Source of the DNA: Methanobacteriota archaeon
Lineage (GTDB): Archaea > Halobacteriota > Bog-38 > Methanoflorentales > Methanoflorentaceae
DNA length: 64,000 nt
NCBI GenBank assembly: GCA_963719035.1
Contig: CAVRAO010000008.1
Location: forward strand, 384,001 to 448,000
Direction: 5' to 3'
In this document: positions 21,139 through 39,900 of the stretch, piece by piece
Numbering within the stretch: the first letter of the stretch is position 1
Layout: the number at the start of each line of letters is the position of its first letter
Position numbers and translations under genes: made by a program
The notes under the pieces: model-generated
Told to the model about the DNA's origin: nothing
Seen by the model: the letters and a program-made list of their open reading frames with translations, nothing else
Databases searched by the model: none

Positions 21139-21717
21139 ATGCGAAAAGAACAAATCATTTATTTAGAGAAGCCCGGCCCTCAAAACACTGAAGACGTGAT
21201 AAACGCCGTGCAGACTTATGTTGCAAGGAGCGGTCTGAAGCGAGTCGTTGTGGCGAGCACAACAGGCGCCACCGCGGTTAAATTTGCAGCTGCGCTCAAA
21301 AACACAGCAGAACTGGTTGTTGTGACTCACCATACCGGATTCAGTCAAGAAGGCACGCAGCGTTTTGACGCGGAAATACGGAAAATGCTCGAAAAACAAG
21401 GAGTCACGGTATTGACCCAATCGCATGTGCTTTCAGGAATTGAAAGGAGTATTTCTCGGAAGTTCGGCGGCATTTCACGCGTTGAGGCCATCGCAGAAGC
21501 GCTTCGCTCCCTGCTCGGACACGGACTCAAAGTGTGCGTGGAGATCGCGATCATGGCAGCTGATGCAGGCGCAATACCTATTGAAGACATTATCGCTGTC
21601 GGTGGCACGGGTAGTGGTTCTGACACCGCCGTAGTGATACGCCCAGCACACATGAACAACTTTTTCGATGCCCGCATCAGGGAGATCATCGTAATGCCAC
21701 GAGGTGGCGATGCCTGA
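21139..21717 (+). CDS. Pyruvate-kinase C-terminal-like protein (MTH1675/DUF1867 type)
   Basis: PGPQNT, VVASTTG.TA, THH.GF, G.KVCVEI..MAADAG, GG.G.G.DTA. Confidence 0.85.
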
Positions 21718-23146
21718 TCGATTTGAAATCACGCACAAAGACGTATTCGGGCGTATTGGCAAGCTTGATACGCCGCACGGACCGATCGAAACGCCTGCTC
21801 TGCTGCCGGTCGTCAACCCGAACGCGGCACTCGTTGCGCCTGAGGAGATGCGACAGTTCGGGGCCACAGCGCTCATAACGAACGCCTATATCATCTACCG
21901 GAATCCCCGTTTAAAGGAAGCTGCGCTCTCTGGAGGTATCCACAAGCTGCTCGGATTTGACGGGCCGATTATGACTGATTCAGGATCATTTCAACTTGCC
22001 ACATATGGGAAAATAGAAATTCGGTCAGAAGAGATAGTGGCTTTCCAGCGCGATATCGGATCAGACATCGGAACTCCAATTGATATACCGACGCCTCCTG
22101 ACGTTCCGTTTGAGCGGGCGCTCAGAGAACTCAATTTGACGCTGGAGCGGATTCGTGAGGCAACGACATGTTGTGGAGCCGAAATGCTGTTAGCGGCACC
22201 TATCCAAGGGTCGACGCACCTCGACTTGAGAGAGCAGCACGCGCGGCTGCTCAGCAAGCTCAACGCCGACGTTTACCCGATCGGAGCAGTCGTTCCACTT
22301 ATGGAATCTTATAGATATACTGCCCTGAGCAACGTCATTATGGCTTGCAAGGCAGGATTGACGTTGAACAAGCCCGTTCATCTGTTTGGAGCCGGGCATC
22401 CCATGATGTTCGCCCTCGCTGTGGCGTTAGGATGTGATCTGTTCGACTCAGCCGCCTACGCGCTCTATGCGAGAGCCGGGCGCTATCTAACGGCAAGCGG
22501 CACTCACCAACTCGACAACTTAGCTTATTTGCCGTGTTCGTGTCCAGTTTGCGCAGCTGGAGATCCGAAGCTCACCGAACGGGAACTTGCCGAGCATAAC
22601 CTTTGGGTGTCATTTGCTGAGCTCAAGACTATCAAGCAAGCGATAGTTGACGGGCAACTCTGGGAGCTGGTTGAAAGACGATGCGCGTATCCCGCGCTTT
22701 TGCAAGCCCTCCGAACGATCCAAAAAAACTGCGCGTCCTTTGAACCCATAGAACCGTTGAAGAGTTCTTTTATGTACACGTGCACGGAATCCGCCGAGCG
22801 GCCGGACGTTGCACGCTTCTCGAAAAAGCTTAACAATCTCGAATTGACCGGCCGCGTGCTCATAACGACCAACCGGAACAAGACCCGGGACGTGGAACAC
22901 GAGTTTGACACCACATTGCTTATGAAGGCCCCTTTTGGTCCCTATCCGCAAGAGCTCGCAGAAACGTATCCTATCGGTCAGTCTGAAGTCCCCGATCCCG
23001 ACTACGCCTCAATCAAATCCGCTGTGAGAAATCTGATAGCGCTTATCAGATCTAAAAACGTTGAAGCGACCTTTGCCTATGATAGCACGTGGAATCACGA
23101 CGATCTTGCCGAACTAAGCTCTTATGCAACGCTCTTACCATTGTGA
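21710..23146 (+). CDS. tgtA: Archaeosine tRNA-guanine(15) transglycosylase, short form without C-terminal PUA
   Basis: [58 protein letters not shown]. Confidence 0.95.
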
Positions 23147-23152
23147 AAGAAC

Positions 23153-24839
23153 ATGACGCGCCTGTTTGAAGTAACAAAGCGAGACGGTGCTGCCCGGTTA
23201 GGAAAGCTCATGTGGCGAGGCGAAGAGGTCGTCACGCCTTGTAGCTTCGAGTCTAAAGAGGACCTTGAGTTCCTAAAGGAATCGACGATTCACCGAGCTG
23301 AAATCGACGTGACGATCGTCGCTGCTCAAGAAGAGACGAGCGCAGAACAAATCGACGCTGATGTAGTCATCCTCGCCGGCGCAGCGAGATTCCGCGATGA
23401 TCCGCGTGGCCTGACCAAAGCGCTCTTGAGGGCGAGAGAATTAGCAAATCCTGATTCAGCGCTTTACGCGCCGGCGTTGGCGACGCCAGAGAACGTGAGC
23501 TTGCTGGTCTACGCGGGCGTTGATCTTGTTGACTCCGTTGTGGCAGGGGTCAAGGCCCGCGAAGGGTACTTTCTCGATGCCGACGGCGGACGGCGATTTG
23601 ACGCGGTTTCGCGCAGGCCCTGTTTGTGCAGCGCCTGCAATGGCGCAAACGTAACAGAACTCTCGTTCGAGCACAAGGTGGCGTTAGCATCAGACCACAA
23701 CAAAAGAGCCCTCAAGGCAGAGCTCAACAAGATAGCCGAGAATGTAGAACGCGGGACCCTAAGGGAGCTTGTGGAGGGACGATGTAGATCTGCTCCCGTG
23801 CTAACAGCACTTTTACGATTGCTCGACGATGAGTTACAATTACTTTGAGCGGCGATCGCCGATTGTGCGGACGGCTACGCTGCTTGCGTGTTCTCAAGAA
23901 TCTCTTAACAGGCCGGAAATACGCCGGTTTAGCGAACGCGTCATAGAGCGCCTTCGGATAAGGGACGGCGTCCTGCTTCTGCTTCCGTGTTCTGCGCGAA
24001 AACCGTACTCTCGCTCGCGGTCCCACAGGATTATCCTTGCACATCTCAATAAACTGCGCCAGTATCTTAACGAGGCCATAATAACGTCGCCTATCGGCGT
24101 TGTTCCACGCAGTCTCGAGATTATGTACCCTGCAAGCAACTACGACATACCGGTCACCGGGAAATGGACGTGTGACGAGAGGGAGTGGGTAATCGGGCGC
24201 CTCAGTCAGTACCTTTCGGTCAATGCTTTTGAAAGTGTTATTGCACACGTAAGTGGTCCCTATCGACAGATCTGTGACGAAGTTGCTGCCTTACTCGGAA
24301 TCGAAATAGTTCACACCGTTTCTGATGAGAACGTTCTTAGTTTCGCGTCCCTCCAGCGCTTACGCACCGTCGCCCAAGAGCTCATTGATAGTTGTTCACC
24401 GGCGCGGCGCGATTTGCGGTTTGATTACTTGCGGGATCTCGCTGATTTTCAATTCGGCTCACACGCGTCAACAGCTATCTTTCCCGAAGTTCCAAAAGTC
24501 CACGGGCTTTTTCCGGCCTACTACGCCTCGGACGGTGGAGAGCGCATAGCAACTATCACGGGCACGTACGGTACCCTTGCTCTGACAATTGAAGGCGCTC
24601 GACGGTACCTGAGCGCAAGCGACGGTACGTACTCCGTAAGAATCGATGACTTCGAACCAAAAGGGACAGTTTTTGCGATAGGCGTGCTCAGTGCTGATCC
24701 CGGTATACGGCCTTTCGACGAGGTGATCGTATACAACGATAGCGTCATTGCAGTCGGAAGAGCCCTCATGAGCGGTTGGGAGATGCAAACGTCGAAAAAC
24801 GGTGGCGCTGTTGCTGTACGGCACATGGAGTCGCGATGA
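23153..24839 (+). CDS. arcS: Archaeosine synthase ArcS, interrupted by one extra T at ~23834 (ORFs 23153-23848 and 23829-24839)
   Basis: FEV.KRDGAARLG, Y.GVDL.D, CxCxxC, then LLPCSARKPYS.S.SH, TSP.G.VPR.LE..YPA..YDIPVTG.W and a C-terminal PUA; total length is 3n+1. Confidence 0.88.
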
Positions 24840-25855
24840 AAAAACAGCAAATACCTCGTGAATACGCGGCCCGGAAGCCGGAGCGAAAAGCAATCGGCAG
24901 CCGCGCACGTGGCAATGCGCAATTTGCCTGGACTGGCATGGATCTGCTAAACGGAGAGGTCGTGCCGTCTCTGACTGTGGTTCTTACGACTAAAGGCTGC
25001 TCCTGGGCCCATCGAGACGGCTGCACGATGTGCGGTTACAGCATCGACTCGAACCCTAATACGCAAGCCTCAGACATTCAAAAGCAATTCAACCAGGTCA
25101 TTGCGCGCTATGGCAAAGCGTTCAAGATCGTGAAACTGTTCACCTCAGGCAGCTTTCTTGATCAAGATGAGGTGCCGATCGACGTGCGAGACGCAATCCT
25201 GTCTGAGTTGAGGGACATGCCGAAGGTTATCGTCGAGAGTCGACCGGAATTTATCACGCCTGCGATCTGCGAGGATATCGCTAGAACAAACGAGCACGTT
25301 GAAGTAGCAATTGGCCTTGAAACGTCAAGTGACCGCATCAGAAACAACTACATCAACAAAGGGTTTTCATTTCGTGATTTTGTCAGGGCATCTGAAGCAG
25401 CACGCGCTCACGGCTTCACAGTCAAGGCTTACCTGCTCCTCAAGCCACCTTTTCTGACAGAACGGGAAGCCTTGGAAGATGCCCTCCAATCCGTTCGCGA
25501 CGCTGCCCCGTACGCAGATACGATTTCGTTGAACTTGTGCAACGTGCAAAAAGGCACCCTCGTTGAGGCACTTTGGAAAAAAGGCCTGTATAGGCCCCCG
25601 TGGTTGTGGTCTGCCGTGGAAGTCCTGAAGCGGACGCACGAGACTGCTACTGTCATCTGCGATCCCGTTGGAGGGGGCTCTCGGCGGGGGCCGCATAACT
25701 GTGGCAAATGCGACCGCGAGGTGGTAGCAGAAATCAAAGAGTTCTCCCTTTCCCAAAACAGCGCGTCATTCACCGCTTCGTGCACCGATCAGATGCTGTG
25801 GGAGTTTGTCCTCGAGTTTGAAGAGTTCAGTTACGGCGCACCGCTTGTGCCGTAA
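24836..25855 (+). CDS. Radical SAM enzyme RaSEA (archaeosine synthesis)
   Basis: GCSWA..GCTMCGY, KLFTSGSFLD, ESRPE, YLLLKPPFL, YRPPWLWS, RGPHNCGKCD; ATGA overlap with arcS. Confidence 0.92.
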   Translation: MKKQQIPREYAARKPERKAIGSRARGNAQFAWTGMDLLNGEVVPSLTVVLTTKGCSWAHRDGCTMCGYSIDSNPNTQASDIQKQFNQVIARYGKAFKIVKLFTSGSFLDQDEVPIDVRDAILSELRDMPKVIVESRPEFITPAICEDIARTNEHVEVAIGLETSSDRIRNNYINKGFSFRDFVRASEAARAHGFTVKAYLLLKPPFLTEREALEDALQSVRDAAPYADTISLNLCNVQKGTLVEALWKKGLYRPPWLWSAVEVLKRTHETATVICDPVGGGSRRGPHNCGKCDREVVAEIKEFSLSQNSASFTASCTDQMLWEFVLEFEEFSYGAPLVP

Positions 25856-36638: not shown

Positions 36639-37004
36639 GTGTTGTTTTTGCTAATTTCTATTACAATACTCACGTCAACAGTAGTTTATTCGCAGGGACA
36701 GCAAATCCTCTTGGCTGAACCTGGAGCCGCGAATCAAACGTCAACGCCGACTCCAACGCCGACTCCAACGCCGACTGCTACGCCAACGCCGACTGCAACG
36801 CCGACTCCTACGCCAACGCCGACTGCAACGCCGACTCCTACGCCAACGTCGACTGCAACGTCAACGCCGACAGGAAATCAAAATGAGCCATCGAACCAAA
36901 CGGGGGGCGGAGGCGCTGATCCTACGCTTGTAGGCGCAGCAATAGTCGGGATTATTGCGGTTGGGCTTATGGTTGGCATCTACCTTACTACGAGGAGGAT
37001 GTAA
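36639..37004 (+). CDS. Small membrane-anchored protein that is mostly a Pro-Thr linker
   Basis: Signal peptide, (TP)n tract, C-terminal TM plus RR. Confidence 0.7.
36738..36871 (+). repeat. Tandem repeat encoding (TP/TA)n
   Basis: Iterated acgccgact(cca/gca/cct) units. Confidence 0.9.
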
Positions 37005-37685: not shown

Positions 37686-37928
37686 CTATGTTCCAGCCGC
37701 CAAATCTCCGATTAGTCCGACGACTTCTTTGAAACTTCTTATCTGTATTGGACCGTAGACCTTATCTAACAAGAGCGAGTTTGCGTTGCGGCCAATGACA
37801 ACTGCCGTATGGCCCTTATTACGTATTTCGATGGTCAACCCCTCATCGTCAAGCGCGCGCGCAGCAGCGCCGAACGTCTTGAGCGCAGAAAGTGCGTTAT
37901 TTATCATATCTAGCCCGTATTCTTGCAC
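37686..37928 (-). CDS. Small hypothetical protein
   Basis: 80 aa, directly abuts the upstream ORF. Confidence 0.6.
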   Translation of the reverse strand: MQEYGLDMINNALSALKTFGAAARALDDEGLTIEIRNKGHTAVVIGRNANSLLLDKVYGPIQIRSFKEVVGLIGDLAAGT

Positions 37929-38168
37929 TTACCCAGTCAGGTCACGAAACTGTTTTACCAACTGGCCAAGATGTTCAGGTTCTACGATATCCAAAGAAAC
38001 AGTTGTTCCTTCGTCCTCAACTCTGACCTCAATAGCAGGATCGTTGCGTACCTTCAATACGAGTTTCGTCTCATTTTGATAAATTATCTGCAAATAATCC
38101 TTGCTTGCTCGTACAATCTCGCGTATTCGCTCCGAATCCATAAATCCCTCTGGCATAAAAGTCACCAC
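37929..38168 (-). CDS. Small hypothetical protein
   Basis: 79 aa; TATA-like element upstream. Confidence 0.55.
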   Translation of the reverse strand: MVTFMPEGFMDSERIREIVRASKDYLQIIYQNETKLVLKVRNDPAIEVRVEDEGTTVSLDIVEPEHLGQLVKQFRDLTG

Positions 38169-38246: not shown

Positions 38247-39257
38247 ATGTCTCCTAAGTCATTCCAGTTTTACCGTACATTTGTCCCAAAGCTGCGTGGA
38301 CTGTGCGATCCCGTCGTTTTGTCCTTTGATAACACAACCTTTGTAAAATCGTACACGCTTGATCCCGCGGTTACCCCCCACCACTTTATTCATAGTGGCA
38401 ACTTTTTCTCGCAACCGTACGTGAAAAAGCCCGAACTGCGAACGAAGGAAAGGGTTCTTGATTTACAAGAGAAGCTTATCAACAAAAGAACTGATGGATT
38501 CATGACTCTCAATGTACCAGTAAACGGCAATTTGACAACGCCTTACTGGAAGCATGGTGAAACGGATCGTTTGAAAGCGATCGAAACGAGCTTAGAAGCT
38601 GCTCTTTGGACAAAAGAGAACACAAAACGACCTGATCTATTATACGCTGGCTTTGAGGTCGGCACATATCGTGATGCGAGTTATATATTCAAAAAAGCAG
38701 TGAATGCCGATCTGACTAACCTCTCAGCAGGATTTGGCCTTTTTTCTCGTCTGGCAAGATACCGTCAAGAAGATCGCCTAAAGCAGTTTGAGGTTCTCGC
38801 TGCATACAGTCAACTCTCACGCGAGTTTGAGGGCACACGCTTTCACGCCTCAGGAGGAAGCGCGTTGAACGTCCTTGAGCTTCTTGCTTACGCAAACGTG
38901 ACGTCAGCAGACGGCTCTAGCGCCGTCATAGCCGGGCTCGTATATGGCTCAGTCTTAACCGCAACGGGAAGGCTCGTCCGAGCGAATAAACTCACTCAAT
39001 GGGAGTGCAACTGCGAGTTTTGTTCGGGCCACCGTCCGTCTGACGTGGTTGAAGAACTCAAGCGCTCAGCTGAAGCGCGTGTACGGCACAACGTTCATGT
39101 GGTCCGCTTTTCATTAGCGCGAATAAATGATGCCCTCGCTAACAATACGATTGCAGAGCTCACCGAGCAGCGGCTTACTTTGTATGACAACAAAACACTT
39201 TGGAAATGCTTAGCCATAGTGAACAAAACCCCCCACGAGAGTGACCTATATGCTTAA
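38247..39257 (+). CDS. Divergent TGT-superfamily (transglycosylase-fold) protein
   Basis: Collinear with this window's TgtA: HSGNF/DSGSF, LNVP/IDIP, FHASG/VHLFG, ADGSS/FDSAA, LTATG/LTASG, CNCEFC..HN/CSCPVC..HN, ELTEQR/ELVERR. Confidence 0.8.
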   Translation: MSPKSFQFYRTFVPKLRGLCDPVVLSFDNTTFVKSYTLDPAVTPHHFIHSGNFFSQPYVKKPELRTKERVLDLQEKLINKRTDGFMTLNVPVNGNLTTPYWKHGETDRLKAIETSLEAALWTKENTKRPDLLYAGFEVGTYRDASYIFKKAVNADLTNLSAGFGLFSRLARYRQEDRLKQFEVLAAYSQLSREFEGTRFHASGGSALNVLELLAYANVTSADGSSAVIAGLVYGSVLTATGRLVRANKLTQWECNCEFCSGHRPSDVVEELKRSAEARVRHNVHVVRFSLARINDALANNTIAELTEQRLTLYDNKTLWKCLAIVNKTPHESDLYA

Positions 39258-39900
39258 AGCAGTGATGTTTGACTGGGATGGGACGCTTTTTAATTCAGTC
39301 ATCCCTACCTACGAGAGCTACTTGGTCGTCATGGACGCATTCGGCCTGCCAAATGTGACACTCGAGGAGTTTAGAGAACAGAGTCGGCCGAACTATCACG
39401 ATTATTACCGGTGGCTGGGGATCAGCGAGGATGACTGGATCGCCGCAGACGAGACCTGGATGAATGGCTACGCGCATTACAAAAAGGACTGCATCCTTTT
39501 TAACGGCACTAAAAACGCTTTGCGTGAACTGAAGGAAATGAATTTGAAGCTCGGGCTCGTTTCGAGTGGGTCTCGAGAACGCGTGACAAGCGAGGTGAAC
39601 GAGCAAAGAATTGAGTCCTACTTCGATTCGATGGTGTTCGGTGACGACGTTGGATTTGAGCACGGGAAGCCAGCGCCAGAAACCTTGCTTATGGCAGTAA
39701 AACGAGCGCGTGTCGTCGCATCGGAGGTGCTTTACGTCGGTGACATGGTTGAGGATATCCTCATGGGGAAAAAGGCAGGTACAAAAACTGCTGCAGTTCT
39801 CTGCGGTTTCGCGACTCCAGAGCTTCTGATGCGGGCACAGCCCGATTTAGTATTGCGCGACGTTAGCGCCCTCCCTAAAGCGATCAAAAAAGAGATGTGA
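39250..39900 (+). CDS. HAD-family phosphatase (PGP/PpaX-like)
   Basis: FDWDGTL.NS, GLVSS, KP.PE, YVGD...D; overlaps the TGT-like gene. Confidence 0.9.
   Translation: MLKAVMFDWDGTLFNSVIPTYESYLVVMDAFGLPNVTLEEFREQSRPNYHDYYRWLGISEDDWIAADETWMNGYAHYKKDCILFNGTKNALRELKEMNLKLGLVSSGSRERVTSEVNEQRIESYFDSMVFGDDVGFEHGKPAPETLLMAVKRARVVASEVLYVGDMVEDILMGKKAGTKTAAVLCGFATPELLMRAQPDLVLRDVSALPKAIKKEM

Follow-up and report, generated by a model that had tools for sequence, protein, structure and literature searches.

A Rare Archaeal Family of TGT-Like Proteins with a Predicted Loss of Two Otherwise Invariant Active-Site Aspartates

TGT-Fold Systems and a Divergent Archaeal Relative

Catalysis by tRNA-guanine transglycosylases (TGTs) and their relatives is described in terms of three aspartates: a nucleophile (Asp280/256/249), a general acid/base (Asp102/95), and a residue that reads the base's Watson–Crick edge (Asp130/156), according to PMC10164549 and PMC6165067. 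The first of these papers terms the three residues invariant both in TGT and in DpdA, the DNA preQ0 transglycosylase. Here, we describe a TGT-like protein encoded in a stretch of 64,000 nucleotides (nt) of DNA from a methanogenic archaeon (contig CAVRAO010000008.1, positions 384,001 to 448,000, hereafter the window), in whose family two of these "invariant" aspartates are uniformly replaced, even in members that are only about 25–30% identical to the window protein. Diverged branches of the superfamily have already given surprises, such as DpdA (DNA modification), ArcS (lysine transfer), and Cap10 (nucleobase–protein conjugation). The two genes under study are the following:

38247..39257, plus strand: the TGT-like gene, an intact open reading frame (ORF) of 336 residues (aa), with a predicted (beta/alpha)8 barrel and a zinc subdomain, and without PUA or other C-terminal domains
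39241..39900, plus strand: a HAD-IA phosphatase gene, encoding 219 aa from the GTG at 39241, or 216 aa from the ATG at 39250

The archaeal TGT, TgtA (ArcTGT, 1iq8), is the best structural and profile match of the TGT-like protein. Both have the barrel with its zinc subdomain and Cys3-His site, and both hold a nucleophile Asp, a stacking Phe, and a His corresponding to that of the VHLFG motif. However, the TGT-like protein does not hold the C-terminal C1, C2, and PUA domains of TgtA (336 aa, compared to about 480–580 aa), and a His is found in place of the acid/base Asp and Ser202 in place of Phe229, while the edge-reading Asp is absent. Bacterial TGT and QTRT1 resemble the TGT-like protein in their single-domain size, with a barrel and a zinc subdomain, and their covalent Asp mechanism, as given in PMC6165067, serves as a template for the one proposed below; nevertheless, the equivalents of their Asp102 and Asp156 are replaced in the TGT-like protein. 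DpdA (7ui4) also has no PUA domain, and represents a TGT fold retargeted to another nucleic acid. Contrary to the TGT-like protein, DpdA keeps the three aspartates (PMC10164549) and bears its zinc site in a large insertion. No dpdB- or dpdC-type genes were found among the annotated neighbours of the TGT-like gene.

Short canonical TGTs of ~343 aa from other Halobacteriota, P0075 included, are similar to the TGT-like protein in length, in the absence of a PUA domain, and in their archaeal origin. They constitute the closest sequence bridge to the TGT-like family (92–109 bits against the family profile), but they keep the DSGGF motif, hold an aromatic residue at the position of Ser202, and form a separate group in the tree; their edge Asp was read directly only in P0075.

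Cap10 and QTRT2 are precedents for a TGT fold rebuilt to a non-canonical role. In Cap10, from type IV CBASS, the guanine-reading residues D73, S74, and D122 are kept, while the zinc site and the tRNA surface are lost and there is no tRNA binding, as stated in a preprint (bioRxiv 10.1101/2025.04.06.647259). The TGT-like family exhibits the opposite pattern to Cap10 (9ntn), as it keeps the zinc site and holds none of the D/S/D readers, and no CBASS genes were found near the TGT-like gene. QTRT2 is mentioned as a noncatalytic paralogue in the same preprint and in PMC6165067. The retention of the nucleophile in the TGT-like family would argue against its belonging to the QTRT2 class. In pseudoenzymes of this type, the catalytic nucleophile is lost, whereas the fold and the zinc site are kept.

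Fold and Homology of the TGT-Like Protein

Curated models largely miss this protein. Pfam PF01702 (TGT) matches it with 17.5 bits (cut-off 26.3), in the C-terminal 62 residues only, and the NCBIfam models for TgtA (TIGR00432) and ArcS (NF040592) score 26.2 against 350 bits and 25.2 against 440 bits, respectively. No PADLOC model, including those for DpdA, matched either the window protein or the distant family member P0056, and among ten distant members scanned with the Pfam TGT model, P0057 alone was above the cut-off (29.4 bits). Pairwise comparisons are equally limited: BLAST with the window's own TgtA does not reach beyond the zinc segment (76 aa at 29% identity, E 5e-5), and neither does phmmer against the PDB. 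Since such matches are too weak for testing individual motif blocks, profiles were used instead.

The family profile matches ArcTGT (1iq8) with an E-value of 9.4e-20 over chain residues 82–346, and DpdA (7ui4) with 1.9e-9 in the C-terminal half. Its matches to bacterial TGT and QTRT1 reach E-values of just 1e-4 to 0.1, and that to Cap10 (9ntn; E 0.26) is insignificant. The comparison by hhalign of a 37-sequence family alignment with 21 canonical TGTs (12 TgtA sequences cut to 360 aa, eight short archaeal TGTs, and one bacterial-type TGT) gave a probability of 99.4% and an E-value of 1.2e-21 over 260 columns. Similarly, an AlphaFold2 model built with 28 family members in the input (mean pLDDT 81.7, pTM 0.83) yielded 22 Foldseek matches in the PDB at E≤0.001, all of them TGT, QTRT, or DpdA chains. 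The ArcTGT of Pyrococcus horikoshii (1iq8) was at the top (TM 0.69), followed by bacterial TGT and QTRT1 (0.65–0.68), with DpdA (7ui4) in the last place (0.45). The matches in BFVD were ordinary phage TGT- or DpdA-like proteins with TM values of at most 0.62, below those of the cellular TGTs, and a search of the ESM Atlas returned only generic TGT-domain clusters (score 0.94).

The profile and structure matches show TGT homology over the full length of the protein, despite the failure of the curated models. As judged from the alignments and the predicted structure, the protein is a full TGT barrel with its zinc subdomain and nothing else attached; a Pfam scan of the 336 aa found no second domain, PUA included. 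The original prediction of a third TGT-fold paralogue, in addition to tgtA and arcS, is in agreement with AlphaFold2/Foldseek, profiles, and hhalign, and a search of the host genome returned three TGT-fold matches in total, namely these three genes. The block-by-block alignment with TgtA on which that prediction relied extends over the full length when profiles are used, whereas pairwise BLAST supports it for the zinc segment only.

Active-Site Residues

All eight motifs on which the proposal of a rewired pocket was built are present: DSGSF at 92, IDIP at 126, IQG at 167, and FDSAA at 247 in the window's TgtA, and HSGNF at 49, LNVP at 88, FEV at 136, and ADGSS at 221 in the TGT-like protein. 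The corresponding features are:

38391..38405, plus strand: HSGNF (H49–F53), in place of DSG[GS]F; the general acid/base Asp has become a His, while the Phe on which the base stacks is retained
38505..38519, plus strand: the T87-L-N89-V-P loop, which lacks the Watson–Crick-edge Asp borne by its canonical counterpart, the L-D-I-P loop
38655..38657, plus strand: E137, in place of ArcTGT Gln169 (IQG of the window's own TgtA)
38910..38918, plus strand: D222-G-S, with the retained nucleophile Asp (ArcTGT Asp249, Zymomonas mobilis Asp280)
39006..39089, plus strand: the putative zinc site C254-x-C256-x-x-C259 ... H281, which aligns with the ligands of ArcTGT and of the window's TgtA

The pairings of H49 with ArcTGT Asp95, of E137 with Gln169, and of D222 with Asp249 agree among HMMER against 1iq8, HMMER against the window's TgtA, and hhalign, wherever each alignment covers the site. 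Beyond these, His200 matches the His of the VHLFG motif, and Ser202 is the predicted equivalent of ArcTGT Phe229. The three replacements originally proposed (D to H, D to N, and Q to E) do not fare equally well in these alignments, as the His and the Glu are the same in all of them, but the pairing of N89 is ambiguous by two residues: the Asp of IDIP pairs with N89 in hhalign and with T87 in HMMER. An AlphaFold model of the window's own TgtA has a strand only at E122–123, compatible with both registers. N89 is more conserved than position 87 (Thr or Ser), and no Asp is found there in any of the 68 members. Because no acidic residue occupies the site under either register, the loss of the edge-reading Asp from the family is certain at the level of the alignments, and Asn89 is its probable replacement.

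The His at position 49 raises a different matter. Its counterpart Asp102 had been taken for a reader of the guanine edge, an assignment that does not hold, since the residue is the general acid/base according to PMC6165067 and PMC10164549. The change from Asp to His consequently alters the catalytic machinery too.

Conservation, Selection, and Phylogeny

Homologues of the TGT-like protein comprise 55 cluster-level sequences of 57–93% identity, the close ones bearing public labels such as "Halobacteriota archaeon", "Euryarchaeota archaeon", and "Bathyarchaeia archaeon". The family is rare: 24 matches at E≤0.001 were obtained among 1.84 billion 50%-identity representatives, with a second tier of 24–34% identity, and a profile search added one member labelled "Promethearchaeota archaeon" by NCBI. 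A total of 68 members were tabulated (43 close and 12 distant proteins, plus 13 taken from metagenome contigs), although some of the metagenome ORFs are near-copies of distant proteins, and these rows are not all independent.

The conservation of the relevant positions among these members is as follows:

H49: 66 of the 66 members in which the position is covered
N52: 66 of 66 covered
F or W at position 53 (stacking aromatic): 66 of 66 covered
N89: 67 of 68
S202 (where canonical TGTs have an aromatic residue): 68 of 68
D222-G-S: 68 of 68
C256, C259, and H281: 68 of 68
C254: 67 of 68
Position 137: Glu in 53, Gln in 13, and Pro in 2 of the 68

The nucleophile Asp and the CxCxxC...H zinc site are therefore kept and the PUA domain is missing, as had been proposed, on the evidence of the alignments, of these counts (67–68 of 68), and of the Pfam scan. 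The co-occurrence of His, Asn, and Glu across the family, put forward as a check, holds for the first two (66/66 and 67/68) but not for the Glu, which is present in only 53 of 68 members. In the tree, the Glu state is found in two of three subclades, and Gln or Pro in the third, so the suggested inversion of polarity by a Gln-to-Glu change is not a trait of the family. As Glu137 alternates with the canonical Gln while the rest is fixed, position 137 cannot be what chiefly determines specificity.

In a 17-sequence alignment (A2), 15 of the 22 invariant or nearly invariant columns belong to the homologues of TGT motifs at the active site or the zinc site. The ratio of nonsynonymous to synonymous substitutions (dN/dS) of the TGT-like gene, calculated against eight genomes of the same genus, is 0.13–0.19, looser than those of its neighbours (HAD 0.07–0.10, with 0.27 in the closest pair; Hsp20 0.04–0.06; CDC48 0.03). 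The TGT-like gene is clearly under purifying selection and is not a decaying copy. The idea of a degenerate pseudoenzyme whose pocket varies randomly among homologues is accordingly at odds with the strong conservation of the sites.

An IQ-TREE phylogeny of 61 sequences placed 37 family members on their own side of a branch of length 1.65 with an SH-aLRT support of 99. The other side held 12 TgtA, eight short canonical TGTs, one bacterial-type TGT, and three DpdA-fusion domains, with ArcS, QTRT1/2, Cap10, and phage DpdA left out of the tree, and the family lies outside the guanine-exchanging clades that were included. A literature search, whose scope did not extend to supplementary files, found no description of the TGT-like family. 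It is a rare, archaea-specific clade of the TGT superfamily, caught by no current Pfam, NCBIfam, or PADLOC model.

Within the host family (f1), a close-family profile detected the TGT-like gene in 20 of 23 other genomes, belonging to both genera, which makes it near-core; completeness is 61, 67, and 86% for the three genomes in which it was missing. Elsewhere in the phylum (37 genomes, 17 other families), the same profile gave only four weak matches, all of them confined to the zinc segment within frames of TgtA length. A broader profile applied to 401 genomes of the phylum revealed TgtA nearly everywhere, together with a third class, the proteins of ~343 aa mentioned above. These are canonical (Pfam TGT 92–142 bits, DSGGF kept), and stand outside the TGT-like family.

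The short TGTs have a context of their own. At three of their eight fetched loci, they adjoin a 966-aa DpdA–DpdC fusion (L052:6017-10025, L053:6021-10098, and L055:2839-6874), which is matched by PADLOC DpdA with 249 bits and holds a DUF6884 domain. Such loci may serve DNA modification of a Dpd-like kind in archaea, with a pair of TGT-fold genes at each.

Proposed Mechanism and Alternative Readings

The reading favoured here, held at slightly less than even confidence, is that the protein is a functional member of the TGT superfamily, that is, a nucleic-acid transglycosylase or glycosylase of non-guanine specificity, with covalent chemistry at Asp222 and His49 as the acid/base. In its favour are the retained nucleophile, zinc subdomain, and stacking aromatic, the purifying selection, the near-core distribution, the separate clade, and the lack of any match in mobile elements or defence systems. 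Catalysis, a nucleic-acid substrate, and a changed base specificity are all things that we infer. In this mechanism, the enzyme would bind nucleic acid, most likely a stable RNA, via the face of the barrel and the zinc subdomain, and a nucleotide would be flipped into the pocket, where its base would stack on Phe53. Asp222 would attack C1' to yield a covalent ribosyl–enzyme intermediate, as in TGT and DpdA, with His49 standing in for the missing Asp as general acid/base. Either a new base would then resolve the intermediate, giving exchange, or water would do so, as in a glycosylase. An active protein would represent nucleic-acid base exchange or excision of a new specificity in environmentally important methanogens.

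Since no member has kept the Asp by which guanine is read at its N1-H/2-amino edge, the base is probably not guanine or a canonically read 7-deazaguanine. A 6-amino purine, the base originally proposed, is not supported by the comparative data but is a possible ligand of the pocket, among several. Pairing of an Asn amide can occur with adenine at its N1/N6 edge and, equally, with the N1-H/O2 edge of xanthine-type bases. The switch to xanthine preference by an Asp-to-Asn change is classical in GTPases, and an Asp-to-Asn mutant of Escherichia coli TGT reportedly shifts its preference to xanthine as well. The more specific proposal that this is the first pocket of the superfamily for a base other than guanine or 7-deazaguanine (candidates being 6-amino purines, 2-oxo purines such as xanthine, and heterocycles other than purines), installed or removed in stable RNA or DNA of methanogens, Promethearchaeota, and other uncultured archaea, is rather unlikely as it stands; if true, it would imply a so far unknown base-exchange modification or repair pathway.

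Several points weigh against the reading as a functional nucleic-acid enzyme. By analogy with DpdA D95A, a mutant of the general acid/base Asp that is described as catalytically inactive in PMC10164549, the change from Asp to His may abolish the canonical chemistry. The register of Asn89 and Thr87 is ambiguous, and the lining of the pocket by these residues is a prediction from alignment. No nucleic-acid-binding accessory domain was found, nor any fused form (768–2190 aa) at E≤1e-10, which is weak evidence, and in the neighbourhoods of the distant loci described below, no partner from RNA or DNA metabolism recurs across lineages. On the other side, the family is basic, with a median isoelectric point (pI) of 8.96, compared to 5.96 for the catalytic domains of TgtA, a weak indicator in favour of the reading. 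Contigs from wetland metatranscriptomes lie on both the TGT-like and the HAD genes, and two 151-nt pieces with one to two mismatches lie at the start of the TGT-like gene or inside it. Among these RNA-library contigs, none spans the junction between the two genes, and parts of the stretch are without cover; as they may derive from DNA, they are only a weak hint of expression. The small word shares of runs X1–X3 are not informative on habitat.

Alternatively, the protein could be a non-catalytic TGT paralogue, acting as a base-, RNA-, or protein-binding subunit or scaffold like QTRT2 or Cap10, possibly as a partner of TgtA or ArcS, both of which are encoded in the same genome. The replacement of two of the three aspartates, and the inactivity of DpdA D95A, are what such a paralogue would lead one to expect, and TGT-fold proteins without nucleic-acid base exchange are documented in the sources cited above for Cap10 and QTRT2. 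However, all 68 members conserve the nucleophile Asp and the following G-S, which a pure binder could do without, and a His can serve well as acid/base. Moreover, some 15 kb separate the gene from tgtA and arcS, and the neighbourhoods of the family differ by lineage. This alternative is thus considered unlikely, although an inactive protein would define a new class of conserved pseudoenzyme.

An exchanger of canonical specificity, which would swap guanine for a 7-deazaguanine such as preQ0, either in DNA or at a new position in RNA, with the His/Asn/Ser set doing the work of the aspartates, is decidedly unlikely. It would fit with the presence in the genome of QueC, a gene of the preQ0 pathway, with the retention of the stacking aromatic, the zinc site, and the nucleophile, and with the canonical Gln of one subclade (13/68). 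It would also follow the repeated switches of nucleic-acid target within the superfamily, in which 7-deazaguanine was retained (DpdA). Nevertheless, the edge Asp is kept in all the cited characterised readers (TGT, DpdA, and even Cap10) and absent in all 68 members, the curated TgtA, ArcS, TGT, and DpdA models fail, and no dpd-type genes occur among the annotated neighbours.

Genomic Context and the HAD Phosphatase

The TAA stop codon of the TGT-like gene (39255–39257) overlaps the start of the HAD gene by 17 nt (GTG at 39241) or 8 nt (ATG at 39250). The HAD protein matches Pfam HAD_2 with 122.1 bits (cut-off 23.8), its N-terminal DxDxT motif being seen as FDWDGT. It falls under every NCBIfam equivalog cut-off, the top models being PpaX (104 against 218 bits) and phosphoglycolate phosphatase. 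By its sequence, this neighbour is clearly a hydrolase of subfamily IA of the HAD superfamily, of a generic PpaX/phosphoglycolate-phosphatase-like kind.

Throughout the host family, the HAD gene directly adjoins the TGT-like gene (with a 4-nt gap or an overlap), but the whole region from Elp3 to Hsp20–CDC48 is syntenic there, so that their adjacency is not independent evidence. Independent contexts were provided by 19 loci of distant members, consisting of one named archaeal metagenome-assembled genome (MAG) and 18 metagenome contigs. A HAD relative was found at none of them (phmmer, E≤1e-3; 14 of these loci with at least 1 kb downstream). Conversely, HAD orthologues of 46–48% identity occur in four of four genomes of another family (f5), in unrelated contexts, and the TGT-like gene was not found in that family. 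The HAD was therefore rejected as a conserved partner outside the host family. Its link to the TGT-like gene is lineage-specific and confined to one methanogen family; of the coupling originally proposed, the adjacency stands for both genera of this family and no further. At three loci of that family, the HAD orthologues (L084:5019-5669, L085:5369-6019, and L086:5158-5808) adjoin a divergent gene of 427 aa, with no TGT-like gene nearby.

These data bear on a third alternative, an extension of the supply role originally proposed, in which nucleotides would be dephosphorylated by the HAD, and the TGT-fold protein would act on free nucleosides or nucleotides, cleaving off or exchanging their base, for salvage or for the synthesis of a modified base. 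The overlap of the two genes, their adjacency in both genera, and their joint presence or joint absence in the same genomes would suit it, but it is very improbable, given that the whole region is syntenic, that the HAD is absent from the 19 distant loci and its f5 orthologues occur in other contexts without the TGT-like gene, that the HAD is a generic IA member under all equivalog cut-offs, and that no TGT-fold enzyme is known to act on free nucleosides.

By lineage, the 19 distant loci form three groups, whose neighbours differ:

Group A: SCP2-like, GH4, and URO-D-like genes, and a giant ORF without known family
Group B: a divergent gene of the Tsr3 type (rRNA modification), together with a nearby EndoIII-type gene and a ~240-aa gene over the 3' end
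Group C: a 370-aa ORF without known family and a giant ORF without known family

At L061, L064, L066, L067, and L068, loci of one lineage, a Tsr3-type gene (Ribo_biogen_C and Fer4_RLI domains) flanks the TGT-like gene (at about 5000–7700 in L061, L064, L067, and L068). At the same loci, a well-conserved gene of ~240 aa overlaps or closely follows the 3' end of the TGT-like gene, and an HhH-GPD glycosylase gene is found nearby. The ~240-aa gene (c1) was regarded as a second candidate partner and rejected, as it is present in one lineage group only, and it holds no Pfam family or HAD motif. The giant ORFs, of 1400–1900 aa, are convergent to the TGT-like gene in two of the groups (L057:7004-11284, L058:3271-7908, L059:7206-12944, L060:2420-7159, and L062:8226-12527); those of L057 and L062, the two that were scanned, have no Pfam match.

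No match of the TGT-like family was found in viral contigs, phage and plasmid collections, or PADLOC, and a defence, viral, or plasmid origin was rejected for lack of support in them. The context of the TGT-like gene is chromosomal and non-mobile. The MAG that holds the distant member P0056 also has a bacterial-type TGT (G061:C17:3281-4343; L022 and L024), with a Pfam TGT score of 385 bits. This gene is divided between two adjoining frames (309 and 86 aa), which may reflect a frameshift or a foreign contig.

TGT Genes of the Host and Other Features of the Window

The host is a methanogen, as mcrA was found in its genome. Its two other TGT-fold genes lie in the window, where they form a compact archaeosine cluster together with RaSEA (21704–25855), all in the same direction:

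21704–23146: tgtA, the canonical archaeosine TGT of the host
23153–24839: arcS, in two overlapping frames (231 aa and 336 aa)
24776–25855: RaSEA (radical SAM), which follows arcS

While arcS is split in the host, it is a single frame of 563 aa in 11 of 15 relatives of the same genus, and another relative, G010, also shows stops. The split may mean a frameshift, a fault in the assembly, or a pseudogene.

The neighbours of the TGT-like gene in the window are Elp3, small ORFs without known family, the HAD gene, Hsp20, and CDC48. Two of the small ORFs, of 80 and 79 aa, abut without overlap at 37686–38168 on the minus strand, in divergent orientation to the TGT-like gene, and belong to no Pfam family. 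In the 78-nt intergenic stretch upstream of the TGT-like gene, the AT-rich, TATA-like words TTTATATC and ATATAAGC were spotted by eye only. Further away, 36639–37004 encodes a protein of 121 aa that belongs to no Pfam family and consists mostly of Thr-Pro repeats, with a C-terminal hydrophobic segment and a basic tail; from its sequence, it looks like a surface-anchored protein.

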